NCBI GenBank assembly: GCA_029247585.1
Contig: JAQWKY010000090.1
Location: 1-43,148 of the forward strand
DNA: 43,148 nt
From: Flavobacteriales bacterium
Lineage (GTDB): Bacteria > Bacteroidota > Bacteroidia > Flavobacteriales > UBA7430
Reading direction: 5' to 3'
The notes under the pieces are model-generated. The model searched no databases. It had not been told where the DNA came from and worked only from the letters and a program-made list of their open reading frames with translations. Shown here in pieces: positions 2 through 6,306 of the stretch; position 1 is the stretch's first letter, and every line of letters starts with the position of its first letter. Position numbers and translations under genes: made by a program.

Positions 2-1279
2 CAATACGCCTGCTACACCGGTACTATTTGCAATACCAAGATTACAGGTGTCTGTTCCCGGACATGCAGTTACATCATGAGTACTGTCAGCCCCCGGCTC
101 TGCAAAACCTAGTCCATCTAACTCACTGTAAAGTACTTTTAGATTCGCCTCTGGGACGAACTTAATTACAAAACCTTGTCCGATAGTAAATCGAATTTCG
201 TCGGAAGCCAAGCGCTCTACAATCTTTGCCAAGGCACGTGCTTGAGTCGTTGTAAAGTCTCCCGTAAGAAGTCTTACATTTACCGCAAAGTAGCCCTCTT
301 GCTTTTGAGCAATCACATTACTTTTAAACCACTTATCGTATGCTTCGGCGTCAACATCTACAGCAACGGCTTCGGTTAAAGGCTCCGGTCTTTTAGTCTC
401 TTCATAAGCCTCGTGATCTATGTGAAAAGTTTTATATTTTAAAGCTTTACGCTCTAACTCTACCAATCTTTGAAACTCTTCAACACCAATCTTTTTCACC
501 AAGTACTTTAAGCGTGCTTTGTTTCTTCGGGCTCTTTCACCGTGTTTGTCAAATACACGTACCAGTGCTTCACTATAAGGAATAATCGCATCTTCCGGAA
601 GGAAATCGTAAACCGACTGAGCTAGGTAAGGCTGAGCACCCAAACCTCCTGCAATTACCACTTTAAATCCGCGTTGCTCTACATTATCAATAATCTTTGT
701 TTTGGCAATAAACCCAATGTCGTGAATGAAGGTGTAAGCGCTGTCTTCTTCGTTTGATGAAAAGGCAATTTTCACCTTACGCCCCATCTCTTGAGAGATA
801 GGGTTTCTCAAGAAGAAATCAAACATAGCGTGTGCGTACGGACTCACATCAAACGGTTCGTTTTTATCGACTCCGGCTAAAGCAGAAGCGGTAATATTTC
901 TTACCGTATTTCCACAAGCTTCACGCAAGGTAACATCATCTTTTTCGAGCTCTGCCCACAGTTGTGGTGTTCTATCCAAACTCACGTAATGAATTTGAAT
1001 ATCTTGACGTGTGGTAATGTGAAGTTTTCCTGTTGAATATTCATCCGCTACGTCGGCAATTCTAAGTAACTGGTTCACTTTTGTCTTTCCGTAAGGAAGC
1101 TTAATCCGGATCATTTGCACACCAGATTGACGCTGCCCATAAACCCCTCTAGCCAACCGAAGACTTCTAAACTTATCTTCGTCTAACTTCCCATCTTTAA
1201 ACAGGTGGATTTTTCTTTCCAGCTCAATAATATCCTTTTCTACTATGGGATTTTCAATTTCAGTTCTAAAACTTTGCAT
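2..1279 (-). CDS. Siroheme/[4Fe-4S] sulfite (nitrite/sulfite) reductase hemoprotein, Bacteroidota type; 3' end runs off the window
   Basis: Not in the ORF track; translated by hand from ATG at 1279: MQSFRTEIENPIVEKDIIELERKIHLFKDGKLDEDKFRSLRLARGVYGQRQSGVQMIRIKLPYG...; also HITTRQDIQIH, LREACGNTVRN, GRKVKIAFS and TACPGTDTCNLGIA motifs of NIR/SIR enzymes. Confidence 0.9.
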   Translation of the reverse strand, partial: MQSFRTEIENPIVEKDIIELERKIHLFKDGKLDEDKFRSLRLARGVYGQRQSGVQMIRIKLPYGKTKVNQLLRIADVADEYSTGKLHITTRQDIQIHYVSLDRTPQLWAELEKDDVTLREACGNTVRNITASALAGVDKNEPFDVSPYAHAMFDFFLRNPISQEMGRKVKIAFSSNEEDSAYTFIHDIGFIAKTKIIDNVEQRGFKVVIAGGLGAQPYLAQSVYDFLPEDAIIPYSEALVRVFDKHGERARRNKARLKYLVKKIGVEEFQRLVELERKALKYKTFHIDHEAYEETKRPEPLTEAVAVDVDAEAYDKWFKSNVIAQKQEGYFAVNVRLLTGDFTTTQARALAKIVERLASDEIRFTIGQGFVIKFVPEANLKVLYSELDGLGFAEPGADSTHDVTACPGTDTCNLGIANSTGVAGVL

Positions 1280-1309: not shown

Positions 1310-1340
1310 AAAAAAAAACCTTTCGATGAGGAAAGGCTTT
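1310..1340 (-). terminator. Intrinsic terminator (attenuator) in the reductase leader
   Basis: mRNA AAAGCCUUUC-CUCAUC-GAAAGGUUUU followed by more U's; ends about 30 nt before the reductase ATG. Confidence 0.85.
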
Positions 1341-1363: not shown

Positions 1364-1474
1364 TCATGAGCATATATCTAACCTTTCGTTTTGTGTACAA
1401 CAACACATTACATAACAGGCACAACAATTCATCATTGCGTTGTTCTGGTTAGTGTATGTATTTGAATTTTTCAT
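1364..1474 (-). CDS. Cys/Met-rich leader peptide 2 (36 aa, MKNSNTYTNQNNAMMNCCACYVMCCCTQNERLDICS)
   Basis: ATG 1474, TGA 1364-1366; 7 Cys and 3 internal Met codons; directly upstream of a terminator and a sulfur-assimilation gene. Confidence 0.85.
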   Translation of the reverse strand: MKNSNTYTNQNNAMMNCCACYVMCCCTQNERLDICS

Positions 1475-1524
1475 GCTGTTGGTTTGTATGGGTAATTTTG
1501 AGTCTGCTTAAATGAAGGTTCACC

Positions 1525-1611
1525 TTAGCAACAACAGCAAGCTGCCTGTGTGGATACACAAGCTGATCTAGAAAGATCATTCGATAGGGCTAAAAAAGTA
1601 ACTTTGTTCAT
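1525..1611 (-). CDS. Poly-Cys leader peptide 1 (28 aa, MNKVTFLALSNDLSRSACVSTQAACCCC)
   Basis: ATG 1611, four consecutive Cys codons (TGC TGT TGT TGC) immediately before TAA 1525-1527. Confidence 0.8.
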   Translation of the reverse strand: MNKVTFLALSNDLSRSACVSTQAACCCC

Positions 1612-1650
1612 CACTTTTAGGGTCTGTAAAGAATTGTTAAAAACTTTTTG

Positions 1651-1683
1651 TAAATATACAACCATAATCGACTATAAAACAAA
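1651..1683 (-). promoter_or_regulatory. Putative Bacteroidota sigma-ABfr-type promoter for the leader/reductase transcript
   Basis: Minus strand TTTG-N21-TATATTTA, one mismatch to the TTTG-N19-21-TAnnTTTG consensus, 40 nt upstream of leader 1. Confidence 0.5.
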
Positions 1684-1858: not shown

Positions 1859-4393
1859 ATGAACTATTTATGGGTAATACTGTTGTTTGCAAGTCCTTTG
1901 AATGCCCAATTTGCAGATGATTTTTCTGATGGCAATTTCAAAAAAAACCCGCCCTGGCAAGGCATAGAAGAACATTTTGAGATAGATGATAAAAACAGAT
2001 TGCACTTAAATGCGCCCAGAGAAAGTGGGGCTTCCTACTTAAGGACAAAGACTGAGCTGTTAGAAAATGCCTCATGGGAAATGTCCCTGACATTAGAGTT
2101 CAATCCCTCCTCATCAAACTATGTAGACTGGTATTTAATGGCGAATGATTCGGTGTTAAAGAATTCCACAAAAGCCTATTTTGTTCGAATTGGAGGTGCT
2201 CTGGACGAGGTTTCACTTTACCGTAAAACCAACGAAGAAGAAATTAAACTTATTGATGGCTTGAATAAGCGCATTGATAGCAATCCTGTGAATCTGCGCC
2301 TAAAAGCCACACAAACCCTAGATGGGCACTGGAGTTTATGGATAGATGCATTGGAGGGAAAGGGCTGGGTTTTGGAAGGTGATGTAAGAGACTTTGAAGT
2401 TCGTGAAACGAGTTACTCAGGCGTCCATTGTGTATACACTTCCACGCGTAGTAATCGATTTTATTTTGATGATTTTATCCTTGAGGGCACGCTCTTCATA
2501 GATAGCATTCCTCCGAAACTAATTGCATCTTCAATCGTAAAAGAAAATACAATCCAACTGAATTTTGATGCTGAAGATCTTAGTCTTCCCTCTTTGAGTC
2601 ACTACAAATTAACCCCCCAATCAGTACGACCCAAACAAGTTCTACAAACCGGAACTAAAATAATCCTCATCTTTGAAAATGCACTTCCAAGTAACGAGCA
2701 TTTTCAACTCAAAATAAGCGGTATATCAGACACTTTGGGCAATCTAATGGCAGATACACTTCTCAACTTTTACAGACAGAAACATCAACAATTCGACCTC
2801 GTCATACATGAGATCATGATGAATCCAGAGCCTACTGTTCAATTGCCAAACGTGGAATATATTGAACTCTTCAATCGTGCTAATTATGCGCTAAATATCA
2901 AAGGTTGGCAAGTAAAAACAAATAGCTCGGTACGGACAATTCCGGAGGTTACTCTCGAAGCTAATGAATACCTCCTACTGATGAACCCGGAAGATTTGTA
3001 TGCTTTTAACAATGCTTTAAAACGCCCTCTGAGCCCATGGGTATACTTAGGCAACACCGAAGGCTATATAGGCCTTTTGGACGAGAAAGGGGCAATCATC
3101 CACGAGGTCCAATACCATAAATCATGGATTCAAAACTCGAATAAAGAACGAGGGGGTTGGTCACTAGAAATGATTGACCCAAAGCATTACTGTGCTGGAA
3201 AAAACAATTGGGGGGCCTGTAAAAACCAAGTCGGCGGAACACCTGGATATTCAAACAGTATAGAAGAAAATAAACTCGATAGTAACCGTGTACATATTAA
3301 AGCGATTGAAGTCATTCAGCAAAATGAAATACAATTTAACTGGTCAGAAAATCTGTACGACTCGACACTTTTCAAAATCGACTACACCTACTTTCATCCC
3401 GAAATTAGTGTTCATAGCATCCACCATATGAGGAACAAAACCTTTGTTGAATTTACAGACAATTTGGAAGAAGGGAAAAGCTATTTATTTAACCCAAGTA
3501 AACTCAAAGACTGCTACAACAATGAAATAGGGCAACACGAACTAGAATTTATAAAAGGGGCCTGGCCCAAAGTAGGCTCCATTTACCTCAATGAATTATT
3601 GTTTAACCCCAAGGTAGGAGGTTATGACTATGTGGAACTTTACAACGCCTCAGAAGAATACGTGGACCTTTCCAAACTTTACCTTGGAAATTACGACAGC
3701 CTTTTTAATGACATTACAAATACAGAGCGCATCAGCTTAAGGCCCATCAACTTTCCGCCAAAGGCCTACCTTGCTTTGTGTGAAAGCAAAGATTGGATTG
3801 AATCAAATTACAAAACAAATGAGCATCTGTTTTTTCTTGAGGTCGATCAGCTTCCGAACCTCCCTAATAAAAAAGGAAGTATCGCCTTGAGTAATCTGGC
3901 TTATGAAATTATCGACAAGTATTCCTACCATGAAGACAGTCATTTCTCTCGATTAGAGTCCGTAAAAGGGGTTGCTCTTGAAAGGTTAAATCCTTCGTCA
4001 GAAGAATGGTTCTCGGCATCATCGACTGAAAATTACGGCACTCCCGGTAGAAAAAACTCACAATTCACTTACTCAGTGCCGAGCAAAACAAAATTAGAAA
4101 TCGTACCCGACGTTTTTACCCCCAATTTGGATGGCAAAGAAGACTTCACAAACATCACATTAGTGCCAAAAAATCCGGTGAAGACAAACATCCGTATTTA
4201 CAATAAAAAAGGATTAGAAGTCCGAAAAATCTGTCAATCGGAATTGATCACTCAGAAAACAAGCTGGATTTGGGATGGGTTGGACGAAGAGAGTCTCGAC
4301 CTACCGATGGGCATTTATATGATTGTTGTTGAATTGTGGGCATCGAAAGGCAAGCCCGAGTATTTAAAGCACCCTGTAGTTATACATTACTAA
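1859..4393 (+). CDS. Secreted lamin-tail-domain protein with T9SS type B (CHU_C / gliding-motility-associated) C-terminal domain
   Basis: Signal peptide; two LTD-like motifs (IHEIMMNPEP..EYIELFN and LNELLFNPK..DYVELYN); C-terminal VFTPNLDGKED..WDG..LPMGIY. Confidence 0.75.
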   Translation: MNYLWVILLFASPLNAQFADDFSDGNFKKNPPWQGIEEHFEIDDKNRLHLNAPRESGASYLRTKTELLENASWEMSLTLEFNPSSSNYVDWYLMANDSVLKNSTKAYFVRIGGALDEVSLYRKTNEEEIKLIDGLNKRIDSNPVNLRLKATQTLDGHWSLWIDALEGKGWVLEGDVRDFEVRETSYSGVHCVYTSTRSNRFYFDDFILEGTLFIDSIPPKLIASSIVKENTIQLNFDAEDLSLPSLSHYKLTPQSVRPKQVLQTGTKIILIFENALPSNEHFQLKISGISDTLGNLMADTLLNFYRQKHQQFDLVIHEIMMNPEPTVQLPNVEYIELFNRANYALNIKGWQVKTNSSVRTIPEVTLEANEYLLLMNPEDLYAFNNALKRPLSPWVYLGNTEGYIGLLDEKGAIIHEVQYHKSWIQNSNKERGGWSLEMIDPKHYCAGKNNWGACKNQVGGTPGYSNSIEENKLDSNRVHIKAIEVIQQNEIQFNWSENLYDSTLFKIDYTYFHPEISVHSIHHMRNKTFVEFTDNLEEGKSYLFNPSKLKDCYNNEIGQHELEFIKGAWPKVGSIYLNELLFNPKVGGYDYVELYNASEEYVDLSKLYLGNYDSLFNDITNTERISLRPINFPPKAYLALCESKDWIESNYKTNEHLFFLEVDQLPNLPNKKGSIALSNLAYEIIDKYSYHEDSHFSRLESVKGVALERLNPSSEEWFSASSTENYGTPGRKNSQFTYSVPSKTKLEIVPDVFTPNLDGKEDFTNITLVPKNPVKTNIRIYNKKGLEVRKICQSELITQKTSWIWDGLDEESLDLPMGIYMIVVELWASKGKPEYLKHPVVIHY

Positions 4394-4424
4394 AAAGCGA
4401 CCCAAAAAAAAGAAAACAAAAAAA

Positions 4425-4521
4425 GGGCAAGCTACTTAAATCACAGTGCTCAACCCTCTACCCTTGCTGCGTTCCCGCCCTGGGGGAATTCGAGGGGAGC
4501 GACTTGTCTAAGACTTGCCCC
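4425..4521 (-). ncRNA. ffs: Signal recognition particle RNA (small 4.5S type)
   Basis: Long hairpin closed by GGGCAAG...CUUGCCC, with domain IV-like CCAGG-GCG-GGAA-CGC-AGCAAGG; U-run at 3' end; TATCTTTG -7 element at 4525-4532. Confidence 0.9.
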
Positions 4522-4591
4522 GCGCAAAGATACGATTCTTTGGATTTTGACGACCTAAACTTTGGAAATTTTATCGGCCTTGGCAAGCAAT

Positions 4592-4648: not shown

Positions 4649-6190
4649 TTAACACTTAGCTAAATTGTGACGTATGCTTACGGATTGATCGATGATGTCT
4701 CGAACGGCATCTATGGGCACCCGTTCTTGTTCCATACTGTCTCTGTGGCGAATGGTCACACAATTGTCCTTTGCCGAATCATTATCCACCGTAATACAGA
4801 AAGGAGTTCCATTCGCATCTTGCCGACGATAACGGCGTCCAATAGAATCTTTTTCTTCAATCACACAATTGAATTCTAATTTCAATTCATCGTATAATTT
4901 TCGAGCCAATTCCGGAAGGCCGTCCTTTTTTGTCAAGGGTAAAATAGCCGCCTTTACCGGAGCTAAAACTGGAGGTAAAGCCAACACAACTCGCGTATCG
5001 TTGTCACCTACTGTTTCCTCACGGTATGCATTGCACATGGTCAATAAGAACATTCGGTCCACACCAATAGAGGTTTCAACCACATAAGGGGTGTAACTTT
5101 CATTGATTTCAGGATCGAAATACTGAACCTTTCTACCTGAGTATTCCTGATGCGCTTTTAGATCGAAGTCGGTACGTGAGTGTATGCCTTCTACCTCTTT
5201 AAATCCAAATGGGAATTGGTATTCTATATCGGCGGCGGCGTTGGCATAATGCGCCAACTTCTCGTGATCGTGAAAACGGTATTTCTCCGCTTCCACCCCT
5301 AAAGATAAATGCCATTTATGGCGTGCCTCTTTCCAATGCTCGTACCATTTCATTTCTTCACCAGGGCGAACAAAAAATTGCATTTCCATTTGCTCAAATT
5401 CACGCATGCGGAAGATAAACTGACGCGCCACAATTTCGTTACGGAACGCCTTACCAATTTGTGCAATACCAAACGGGACTTTCATACGTGCCGTTTTCTG
5501 AACATTCAAAAAGTTCACAAAAATCCCCTGCGCCGTTTCCGGACGCAGCCACAGATCACTCGAACCATCGGCGGTAGCACCCATTTTAGTTCCAAACATC
5601 AGATTAAACTGACGAACATCGGTCCAATTAGCGGTCCCGGAGATCGGGCATTTTATTTCTAACTCTTCAATCAGCGCTTTTACATCTTCCAAATCTTCTT
5701 TTTCTAAGCTTCCATTCAGACGCTTGGAAATAGCCGCCATCTTTTCCTTGTAACCCAAAACTCTTGGATTCGTTTCTAAAAACTGAGCCTTATCAAAAGC
5801 CTCACCAAAACGCTTGGCAGCCTTCTTTACTTCTTTGGCAATTTTACCTTCAATCTTTGCGATGAAATCCTCTACCAAAACGTCTGCTCTATAGCGCTTC
5901 TTGGAATCCTTGTTGTCTATCAAGGGATCATTAAATGCGTCTACGTGTCCTGAAGCTTTCCAAATCGTAGGGTGCATGAAAATTGCAGAATCGATGCCGA
6001 CAATGTTTTCATTCATCTTCACCATAGATGCCCACCAATATTCCTTGATGTTTTTCTTGAGCTCTGATCCGTTTGATCCGTAGTCATAAACAGCTGCTAA
6101 ACCATCGTATAATTCACTCGATTGAAAAACGTATCCGTACTCCTTAGAGTGCGCGATTACTTTCTTAAAAATGTCTTGTTGATTTGCCAT
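4649..6190 (-). CDS. glyQS: Glycine--tRNA ligase (homodimeric alpha2 type)
   Basis: LRPETAQGIF, FRNEI..FIFRMREFEQME, VVETSIGVDR and anticodon-binding domain; start reassigned to ATG 6190 (MANQQ). Confidence 0.95.
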   Translation of the reverse strand: MANQQDIFKKVIAHSKEYGYVFQSSELYDGLAAVYDYGSNGSELKKNIKEYWWASMVKMNENIVGIDSAIFMHPTIWKASGHVDAFNDPLIDNKDSKKRYRADVLVEDFIAKIEGKIAKEVKKAAKRFGEAFDKAQFLETNPRVLGYKEKMAAISKRLNGSLEKEDLEDVKALIEELEIKCPISGTANWTDVRQFNLMFGTKMGATADGSSDLWLRPETAQGIFVNFLNVQKTARMKVPFGIAQIGKAFRNEIVARQFIFRMREFEQMEMQFFVRPGEEMKWYEHWKEARHKWHLSLGVEAEKYRFHDHEKLAHYANAAADIEYQFPFGFKEVEGIHSRTDFDLKAHQEYSGRKVQYFDPEINESYTPYVVETSIGVDRMFLLTMCNAYREETVGDNDTRVVLALPPVLAPVKAAILPLTKKDGLPELARKLYDELKLEFNCVIEEKDSIGRRYRRQDANGTPFCITVDNDSAKDNCVTIRHRDSMEQERVPIDAVRDIIDQSVSIRHNLAKC

Positions 6191-6306
6191 AGCTGCAAAA
6201 GTAATAAATAGTATGATATGACCGAGAGGTGTTTGGCTAAGTTCATGGATTAACACCAGGCCCTGATAAAACAATACCTCAGAAAGGTTCGGTCAAGACG
6301 AAAAGA

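Follow-up and report, generated by a model that had tools for sequence, protein, structure and literature searches.

Results

Two cysteine-rich short ORFs lie upstream of a sulfite reductase gene

We analysed a leader region in a 43,148-nt stretch of DNA (contig JAQWKY010000090.1 of assembly GCA_029247585.1, hereafter the window) from an uncultured marine flavobacterium of the order Flavobacteriales. Coordinates are window positions, checked by script and read from the sequence, and the leader mRNA is encoded on the minus strand. The leader precedes sir, the gene for the sulfite reductase hemoprotein (2..1279, minus, ATG at 1279), which carries NIR_SIR and NIR_SIR_ferr domains, is the first gene of its operon and is truncated by the end of the contig. 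The roughly 330 nt upstream of sir hold, in this order, promoter-like motifs, an upstream open reading frame (uORF1) that ends in a run of cysteine codons, a spacer, a second upstream open reading frame (uORF2) that is also rich in cysteine codons, and an intrinsic terminator.

uORF1 (1525..1614, minus) can start at a GTG (1614) or an ATG (1611) and ends at the TAA in 1527-1525. Its 28-amino-acid (aa) peptide, MNKVTFLALSNDLSRSACVSTQAACCCC, has four cysteines directly before the stop. These codons, UGC UGU UGU UGC (1528..1539, minus), are invariant within the same genus, and the length of the run varies beyond it, with four Cys in the window's genus, six in a second genus and five in a variant leader, L024. 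The frame is kept in the relatives G001, G002 and G004 and in the metagenome loci through indels of 36/39 nt and of 6 nt, all of them in frame; the relative L003 has the GTG start only, and the only constant content of the ORF is its end. Because the frame survives the in-frame 36- and 39-nt indels while the Cys run varies between four, five and six codons, uORF1 looks translated. No intrinsic terminator follows it, as the initial annotation of this DNA had stated: a scan of 1200-1900 found terminator-like sites only at 1340-1315, beyond uORF2.

The start of uORF1 (GTG/ATG) itself lies within a predicted hairpin, AAAAGUGA / UUACUUUU (1594-1618, minus). Neither arm varies among the relatives; in L024 the hairpin is shorter, AAAAG/CUUUU. 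This hairpin may tune initiation on uORF1.

The Cys codons of uORF1 are complementary to the start of uORF2

The spacer between the uORF1 stop and the uORF2 AUG spans 50 nt (1475..1524, minus), and its length is 49-52 nt in all relatives. Codons 1-3 of the Cys run contain UGCUGUUG (1532..1539, minus), which is the perfect reverse complement, over 8 nt, of CAACAGCA (1474..1481, minus), a segment that ends on the A of the uORF2 AUG (1474). The initial annotation had pointed out this complementarity, and it proved exact both by script and by eye. We denote the corresponding helix P1. It is part of the minimum free energy (MFE) fold of the 376-nt leader as computed by RNAfold (z = -3.24, with 0 of 100 shuffles as stable), in which a second helix, P2 (UUGCU 1531-1527 with AGCAG 1508-1504), encloses a hairpin, P3 (1525-1510); P2 and P3 together occupy 1504..1531 (minus) and cover the last Cys codon and the stop codon of uORF1. 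Two details of the initial annotation fared less well. The UUG/CAA extension of the duplex past a 2-nt bulge is present in the window, but RNAfold forms P2 instead, and the AAGG-UGAA-CCUU hairpin at the uORF1 stop exists at 1526-1515, but the AGGUGA/UCAUUU register of P3 is preferred over it.

In the ensemble fold, bases -8 to +3 of the uORF2 AUG pair with the poly-Cys tract with a mean probability of 0.71. To appreciate how closed this start is, we note that it is more structured than 97.5% of 200 starts sampled from the 800 long-ORF starts of the same genome (probability of being unpaired 0.17, against a median of 0.52); the sir start falls in the most open 2.5% of the same 200. When the 50-nt spacer of L001 was shuffled by mononucleotides, a perfect complement to the tract of at least 8 nt at most 12 nt from the AUG arose in 5 of 2000 shuffles, and one anywhere in the spacer in 28 of 2000, while for L004, from the second genus, the 7-mer complement near the AUG was reached in 10 of 2000 spacer shuffles; these p-values are post hoc, since the pairing was chosen after inspection. 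Complementarity of this kind is unlikely to arise from composition alone. Pairing of the Cys codons with the start region of sir was also considered, and was dropped because its context is not conserved.

uORF2 is followed by a terminator and a candidate antiterminator

uORF2 (1364..1474, minus; ATG at 1474, TGA at 1366-1364) encodes the 36-aa peptide MKNSNTYTNQNNAMMNCCACYVMCCCTQNERLDICS. Seven of its codons specify cysteine, namely codons 17, 18, 20, 24-26 and 35 (1426-1421, 1417-1415, 1405-1397 and 1372-1370). The Cys positions are invariant in relatives while neighbouring residues change (YVM/VAV, TQN/KHK), a pattern expected where the codons serve regulation, not where the peptide itself is functional.

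Downstream of uORF2 lies an intrinsic terminator (1310..1340, minus) with a stem at 1340-1315, in which CCUUUC (1336-1331) faces GAAAGG (1324-1319), and a tract of nine U residues at 1318-1310. The scan detected two terminator-like sites here where shuffles lead one to expect 0.2, and the terminator is conserved at 29-30 of its 31 bases in relatives. Codons 29-30 of uORF2 carry a second GAAAGG (1382..1387, minus; region 2), which is identical to the 3′ arm of the terminator and can therefore pair with the 5′ arm CCUUUC, as the 5′ strand of an antiterminator.

We folded four sequences with a ribosome footprint masked at different codons. A footprint on the uORF2 stop codon leads to a predicted terminator in 4/4, one on the first Cys codon to a predicted antiterminator in three (L001, L004 and L024, not L003), and one on later Cys codons to a predicted antiterminator in L004 and L024 only. 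On these folds, uORF2 is most simply read as a Cys-codon transcription attenuator, the output of which would be transcriptional.

The leader and its predicted fold recur in two genera

When 61 relatives were searched at the DNA level, the full leader turned up in only four genomes, namely the window's own, two others from its genus and one from a second genus; six further relatives match the coding start of sir alone. The uORF2 motif is present in 4 of 17 genomes of the family, and a metagenome scan with this motif returned 36 loci, of which 8 were judged by their flanks to be true homologs and 28 to be unrelated. Genomes and metagenomes together provide 10 distinct leader sequences, and the nine distinct ones that bear uORF1 were folded for pairing between the Cys tract and the uORF2 start. 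Such pairing, whose conservation in homologs had been named as a test of the initial annotation, is predicted in all nine, with mean probabilities of 0.70-0.80 in one genus (L001, L002, L003, L042 and L052) and 0.45-0.61 in the other (L004, L022, L032 and L045).

The P1/P2/P3 architecture is predicted in each of five orthologs folded separately, from two genera, and is also the consensus fold of six of the nine distinct sequences. In the relatives P1 joins the Cys tract to AACAGCA, P2 joins the last Cys codon and the stop to the spacer, and P3 is the inner hairpin. The second genus is also predicted to form P2 and P3, built there from different sequence, and all changes counted in them are one-sided. 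In that genus, where the Cys run has six codons instead of four, the spacer contains AACAAC, which is absent in the first genus and pairs with the extra codons. The last 7 nt of the spacer plus the AUG form an island of conservation: between L001 and L004 they keep 9 of 10 bases, against 17 of 43 in the rest of the spacer, and between L001 and L003 they keep 10 of 10, against 31 of 43.

One variant leader, L024 (L024:3794-4384, minus), is built differently. After its uORF1 homolog, which has five terminal Cys codons, comes an ORF of 99 codons, and the TGA of this ORF overlaps the ATG of uORF2 (ATGA). The ORF matches the N-terminus of alpha/beta-hydrolase proteins of 348 aa at 58-59% identity, and the full-length gene is found about 10 kb downstream of the leader in G001 and G002. 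The L024 uORF2 has five consecutive Cys codons instead of three, and its AUG is predicted to be mostly unpaired (0.72-0.77). By its layout, L024 shows uORF1 as what appears to be a movable module, with uORF2 translation probably tied once more to upstream translation.

Predicted promoter, operon and neighbouring genes

A predicted promoter of the Bacteroidetes type lies at 1651..1683 (minus), with TTTG at 1683-1680, a 21-nt spacer and TAtaTTTA at 1658-1651; we take the consensus to be TTTG / TAnnTTTG. Both motifs are kept in the alignment of relatives. From their positions, transcription would be expected to start near 1645-1642, and uORF1 is thus predicted to have a 5′ untranslated region (UTR) of about 30 nt and not to be leaderless.

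As the window contig ends within sir, the rest of the operon is described from the relative G002 (L077, G002:C47:105500-119400, minus). According to Pfam, sir is followed there by a tetrapyrrole methylase (the siroheme methylase), a PALP-family pyridoxal phosphate (PLP) enzyme, a Prok-JAB protein, a ThiS-family protein, a ThiF-rhodanese protein, a phosphoadenylyl sulfate (PAPS) reductase, two subunits resembling 2-oxoacid:ferredoxin oxidoreductase, an alpha/beta hydrolase resembling homoserine acetyltransferase and a Cys/Met PLP enzyme. The leader thus adjoins genes of cysteine and sulfur metabolism. The gene set presumably represents a CysO-thiocarboxylate (CysO/CysM/Mec-type) cysteine pathway like the mycobacterial one. 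Neither the sulfite reductase and CysO/CysM-type content of the operon nor the terminator/antiterminator pair of uORF2 had figured in the initial annotation. In G002, sir appears as two overlapping ORFs of 467 and 244 aa (L077:11165-13259, minus), the result of a frameshift or of an assembly error; in L024 it is a single ORF of 702 aa.

An ORF of 844 aa (1859-4393, plus) diverges from the promoter region of the leader, and an ORF of 541 aa, which we take to resemble class II aminoacyl-tRNA synthetases, lies nearby (4649-6274, minus). Rfam places a small signal recognition particle (SRP) RNA of the Bacteroidales type at 4421-4527 (minus; 86.1 bits, over the gathering score), which assigns the window to Bacteroidota. 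No curated Rfam family fits the leader itself, its sole match being Phe_leader at 1309-1436 with 21.4 bits (gathering score 55, E = 3.6).

The region is also found in RNA libraries, in contigs that are 90-95% alike and come from relatives. In four runs these contigs cover 1005-1494 (X10), 1131-1534 (X12), 1283-1592 (X9) and 1314-1545 (X13), and some of them bridge the terminator. The X13 contig ends next to the terminator, from which we conclude nothing. Such contigs cannot show transcript starts, ends or levels, DNA carry-over is possible, and they add nothing decisive.

Cysteine leaders elsewhere in the order

A DNA motif for four Cys codons followed by a stop was matched in 193 of 401 genomes of the order, far above the reversed control. 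Of 334 such places 20 were fetched, and 19 of these look like out-of-frame coding sequence, so that the excess mostly reflects codon bias; we therefore rejected this tally as evidence that Cys leaders are common. The remaining place, L067 (G234:C1:15050-16350, minus), is a leader-like, ATG-started short ORF with a terminal run of nine Cys (…MRMCCCCCCCCC), 52 nt upstream of a 268-aa ORF, a spacing close to the 49-55 nt of the studied loci.

In the family f6, all three loci (L005, L008 and L010) have a single Cys-rich uORF, located about 400-570 nt upstream of sir and before a small ORF, with peptides ending in ...CCSCCCC, ...MCCCNYCCC and ...MCLCCLKTTICCTYS, respectively. A clear terminator follows the Cys-rich uORF in L008, and none does in L005 and L010. 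In the family f5, no convincing Cys-rich leader was found within 6 kb upstream of sir (0/3: L078, L079 and L080); a 62-codon stop-to-stop frame in L078 was judged not leader-like. In these three loci sir comes after same-strand ORFs of 233-236, 299 and 414 aa, and in L079 and L080 a 136-aa ORF is found further upstream, whose N-terminus, as we read it, resembles Rrf2-type regulators. This suggests protein-based control in the f5 family. Cys leaders are not universal within the order. A scan of the window's own genome found no other convincing Cys leader; the candidate C56 lies among tRNA genes and terminators and was rejected.

Discussion

A possible two-stage cysteine switch

We consider it likely that the leader described here is a cysteine-responsive attenuator of some kind. 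As to how it might work, we propose that it consists of two ribosome-read cysteine sensors placed in series ahead of the sulfite reductase / CysO-CysM operon. The second stage would be the switch proper. A ribosome stalled at the uORF2 Cys codons (17, 18, 20 and 24-26) would free GAAAGG 1387-1382 to pair with CCUUUC 1336-1331, and the resulting antiterminator would let the polymerase read through; a ribosome that reaches the UGA would instead cover GAAAGG, and the terminator (1340-1315 and its U tract) would form.

The first stage would gate the second. The four terminal Cys codons of uORF1 and its stop would be folded with the spacer into P1-P3, and P1 would bury bases -7 to +1 of the uORF2 AUG. 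To our knowledge, initiation in this phylum does without Shine-Dalgarno pairing, and start sites in it are thought to be chosen by their accessibility. With no Shine-Dalgarno sequence in use, an open start region should matter most. The uORF2 AUG would accordingly be exposed only for as long as a ribosome sits at the end of uORF1, a short time with ample Cys-tRNA and a long one with little. Low cysteine would thus both require and produce two successive stalls, as in an AND gate, and turn the operon on; at high cysteine uORF2 would be either untranslated or read to its stop, and transcription would end in the leader. The sequences, reading frames, complementarity, terminator, conservation and operon content are observed; that P1 forms in vivo and limits uORF2 initiation, and how the switch behaves when uORF2 is not translated, we infer.

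The specific claim that stalling on uORF1 licenses uORF2 seems to us possible, though we would put its chances somewhat below even. The idea that uORF1 controls a second leader peptide was already present in the initial annotation; it gains from the pairing predicted in all nine sequences, from the conserved 3′ arm and from a published cascade model (see below), and it is weakened by the lack of compensatory changes, of which there are none in 18 consensus pairs. The Cys codons fix one arm of the helix, and this accounts for the absence of two-sided changes; for the same reason, and because the homologs come from only two or three close lineages, conservation of the pairing is inseparable from inheritance. 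Other observations also weigh against the gate. In the second genus P1 has a G-A mismatch at its position 8, the local-fold z-scores of five orthologs are weak (-1.5, -3.0, -3.8, -0.8 and -1.1), and in L004 17 of 200 spacer shuffles reach the observed pairing probability. L024 retains AAAACAGCAUG although its uORF1 sits 350 nt upstream, behind the 99-codon ORF, and the 3′ arm can therefore persist without a nearby partner. Further afield, L067 has no complement to its Cys tract near the downstream start, and of the two f6 loci that were examined for pairing of the Cys tract with the next start, L005 has none and L010 a partial one.

A difficulty of another kind concerns how the switch behaves by default. 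When nascent RNA free of ribosomes is folded at equilibrium up to a point before the 3′ arm of the terminator, the antiterminator forms with a probability of 1.00 in six of six sequences, and the best full-length structures with either helix differ by just 0.3-4.1 kcal/mol. Antiterminator in ribosome-free RNA would give read-through when uORF2 is silent, and if this is so, the gate would raise expression at high cysteine. A competing helix may offer a way out. In the nascent RNA of uORF2 only, up to region 2, a 1:2 helix is part of the MFE fold in five of six sequences (CUAACC:GGUUAG in one genus, GUACACAAAAC:GUUUUUUGUAC in the other), with a strength of -6.7 to -10.6 kcal/mol, near that of the 2:3 duplex (-11.5 to -12.9). 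It would form first, and if it trapped the RNA kinetically, as in trp, the AND gate would be coherent. Against this, 20-29 of 1000 shuffles yield a duplex at least as good for L001 and L002, and 140-151 of 1000 do so for L003, L004, L032 and L024, and the helix sits 5′ of the stall sites, unlike in trp. If the 1:2 helix does not trap the RNA, the alternatives are that uORF1 translation feeds uORF2 or that Rho acts on the untranslated leader. The full combination, in which a translational poly-Cys attenuator masks the AUG of a second, terminator-linked Cys leader so that one signal passes a two-stage ribosomal AND gate, is a tentative proposal, which we think less likely than not.

Alternative explanations

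That the ribosome-free nascent RNA is predicted to form the antiterminator, and that the folds predict termination only if a ribosome sits on or close to the uORF2 stop, would both fit a scheme in which translation of uORF1 itself matters, rather than stalling on it. P1-P3 would then be a pause or hold structure that the first ribosome melts, and a ribosome that ends at the UAA, or one that loads at that time, would start uORF2 close behind the polymerase. At high cysteine it would run to the uORF2 stop and cause termination, whereas a stall on uORF1 would withhold the ribosome, leave the antiterminator as the default and allow the operon to be read. The constant distance between stop and start and the overlap of the L024 uORF2 with the preceding stop, which couples it to upstream translation, agree with such a relay. 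However, P1 would be opened by a ribosome that stalls on the first Cys codon, and new ribosomes could then initiate, so translation is not obviously withheld; the literature examined documents no reinitiation across 50 nt in this phylum; and a pure synchroniser would have no need of Cys codons in uORF1, yet four to six are always kept. We regard this scheme as unlikely. Less likely still, in our view, is that the two uORFs are independent attenuators to which the P1 complementarity adds little, uORF1 acting through Rho-dependent termination or mRNA decay on an untranslated A/C-rich spacer and uORF2 through its intrinsic terminator. Rho, also raised in the initial annotation, was put forward by Seliverstov et al. 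(2005, PMC1262725) for actinobacterial Cys leader peptides that lack a terminator, and the lack of a terminator after uORF1, the presence of a rho gene in the genome and the apparent portability of uORF1, which in L024 lies upstream of another ORF, are all compatible with it. The spacer is C/A-rich and G-poor, as had been noted, but only mildly so: over the spacer and early uORF2 (98 nt) the C content is 0.23 and the G content 0.11, which is the 93rd percentile of C-G in the window, and most of the stretch is A; in the corresponding stretch of the second genus the bias is weaker, with C at 0.16-0.17 and G at 0.10-0.11. Rho control is thus neither strongly supported nor excluded, and it would leave unexplained both the conserved island at the uORF2 AUG and the pairing of the whole Cys tract in both genera.

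It could also be that the complementarity is incidental, since UGY repeats easily find partners rich in ACA or GCA and ribosomes may keep the region unfolded in cells. The tandem layout would then be a by-product of leader rearrangement, of which L024, with its alpha/beta-hydrolase-like fragment between the uORFs, is an example, and uORF1 might be a weak or vestigial sensor. The missing compensatory changes, the modest z-scores in three of the five folds, the 3′ arm kept in L024 and the post hoc character of the shuffle tests speak for this explanation. We nevertheless think it improbable, given that a complement like the observed one turned up so rarely in shuffled spacers, that the start-codon context is an island of conservation in a divergent spacer, that the poly-Cys run has been retained and even lengthened along with a matching change in the spacer, and that the uORF1 frame survives in-frame indels.

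Relation to known leaders

The locus is a variant that combines known types of ribosome-mediated attenuation. The nearest parallel to its first stage is the mycobacterial poly-Cys short ORF Ms5788A, for which mutation and compensation showed that the Cys tract sequesters the following gene's ribosome-binding site (Canestrari et al. 2020, 10.1101/834739); the precedent invoked in the initial annotation is as it had been described, and the authors call uORF attenuation for cysteine previously undescribed. Like Ms5788A as reported there, uORF1 is a short ORF that ends in a Cys run upstream of sulfur and cysteine genes, has no terminator after it, and contains a Cys tract predicted to pair just before the start of the next ORF, which a stalled ribosome is proposed to free. 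Unlike in that system, the next ORF here is a Cys leader peptide with an intrinsic terminator, the masked element is the AUG with 7 upstream bases and not a Shine-Dalgarno sequence, the predicted 5′ UTR is about 30 nt where Ms5788A is leaderless, and the spacer measures 50 nt, against 97 nt there. The locus also belongs to a different phylum, Bacteroidota, and its likeness to Ms5788A is one of sequence and predicted folds. In the actinobacterial Cys leader peptides (Seliverstov et al. 2005, PMC1262725), too, Cys runs lie near the stop, upstream of cys operons, with no terminator after the Cys ORF; as presented there, these are single uORFs that have neither a second leader nor a terminator stage.

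A cascade of two leader ORFs has been considered for ermA, where in one model a stall on the first ORF, ermAL1, activates the second, ermAL2, whose stall turns the gene on, although the interplay of the two leaders is called 'not clearly understood' (PMC8274638). Both systems place two short ORFs in one leader, with the second start sequestered by pairing with the first (as predicted here). The erm signal is a macrolide together with arrest by the nascent peptide, whereas here it would be read by Cys codons, and the erm output is translational, on a resistance gene, whereas here a terminator lies upstream of a biosynthetic operon. The leader of Salmonella mgtCBR also contains two translated short ORFs and alternative RNA structures that control transcription; its ORFs mgtM and mgtP read different signals, ATP and proline, and act independently and additively (PMC3641672), whereas both ORFs here would read cysteine and the first is predicted to control initiation on the second. 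With trp and his attenuators, as outlined in the introduction of 10.1101/834739, uORF2 shares its regulatory codons, a candidate antiterminator that shares a strand with the terminator, and a U tract before the first gene; it differs from them in its Cys codons, in a weak candidate 1:2 helix located 5′ of the stall sites, and in having a second sensing uORF upstream.

In the literature searched, we found neither a terminator attenuator with a Cys leader peptide from Bacteroidota nor a case of one amino-acid-sensing leader governing another. One study infers attenuation by leader peptides for amino-acid operons of Flavobacterium psychrophilum, with no details given in its main text (PMC9723704), and its Appendix D9 and Table S7 may list flavobacterial leader peptides relevant to this point.

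Implications

Control of cysteine genes by ribosome stalling has, in the literature searched, experimental support only in mycobacteria, and the output there is translational. The locus described here joins a cysteine module of the mycobacterial type to a classical terminator switch, in a different phylum. If the AND gate is real, it would represent both the first 'leader of a leader' that senses an amino acid and the first Cys-codon transcription attenuator described in Bacteroidota, and the requirement for two stalls would give a low leak and a steep response. A working gate would also show that serial sensing of a single metabolite can be built from two leader peptides, and would be a naturally occurring system in which to test the degree to which RNA structure at the AUG can by itself control initiation. 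These findings bear on the control of sulfur assimilation in small-genome marine bacteria such as the uncultured flavobacterium studied here.

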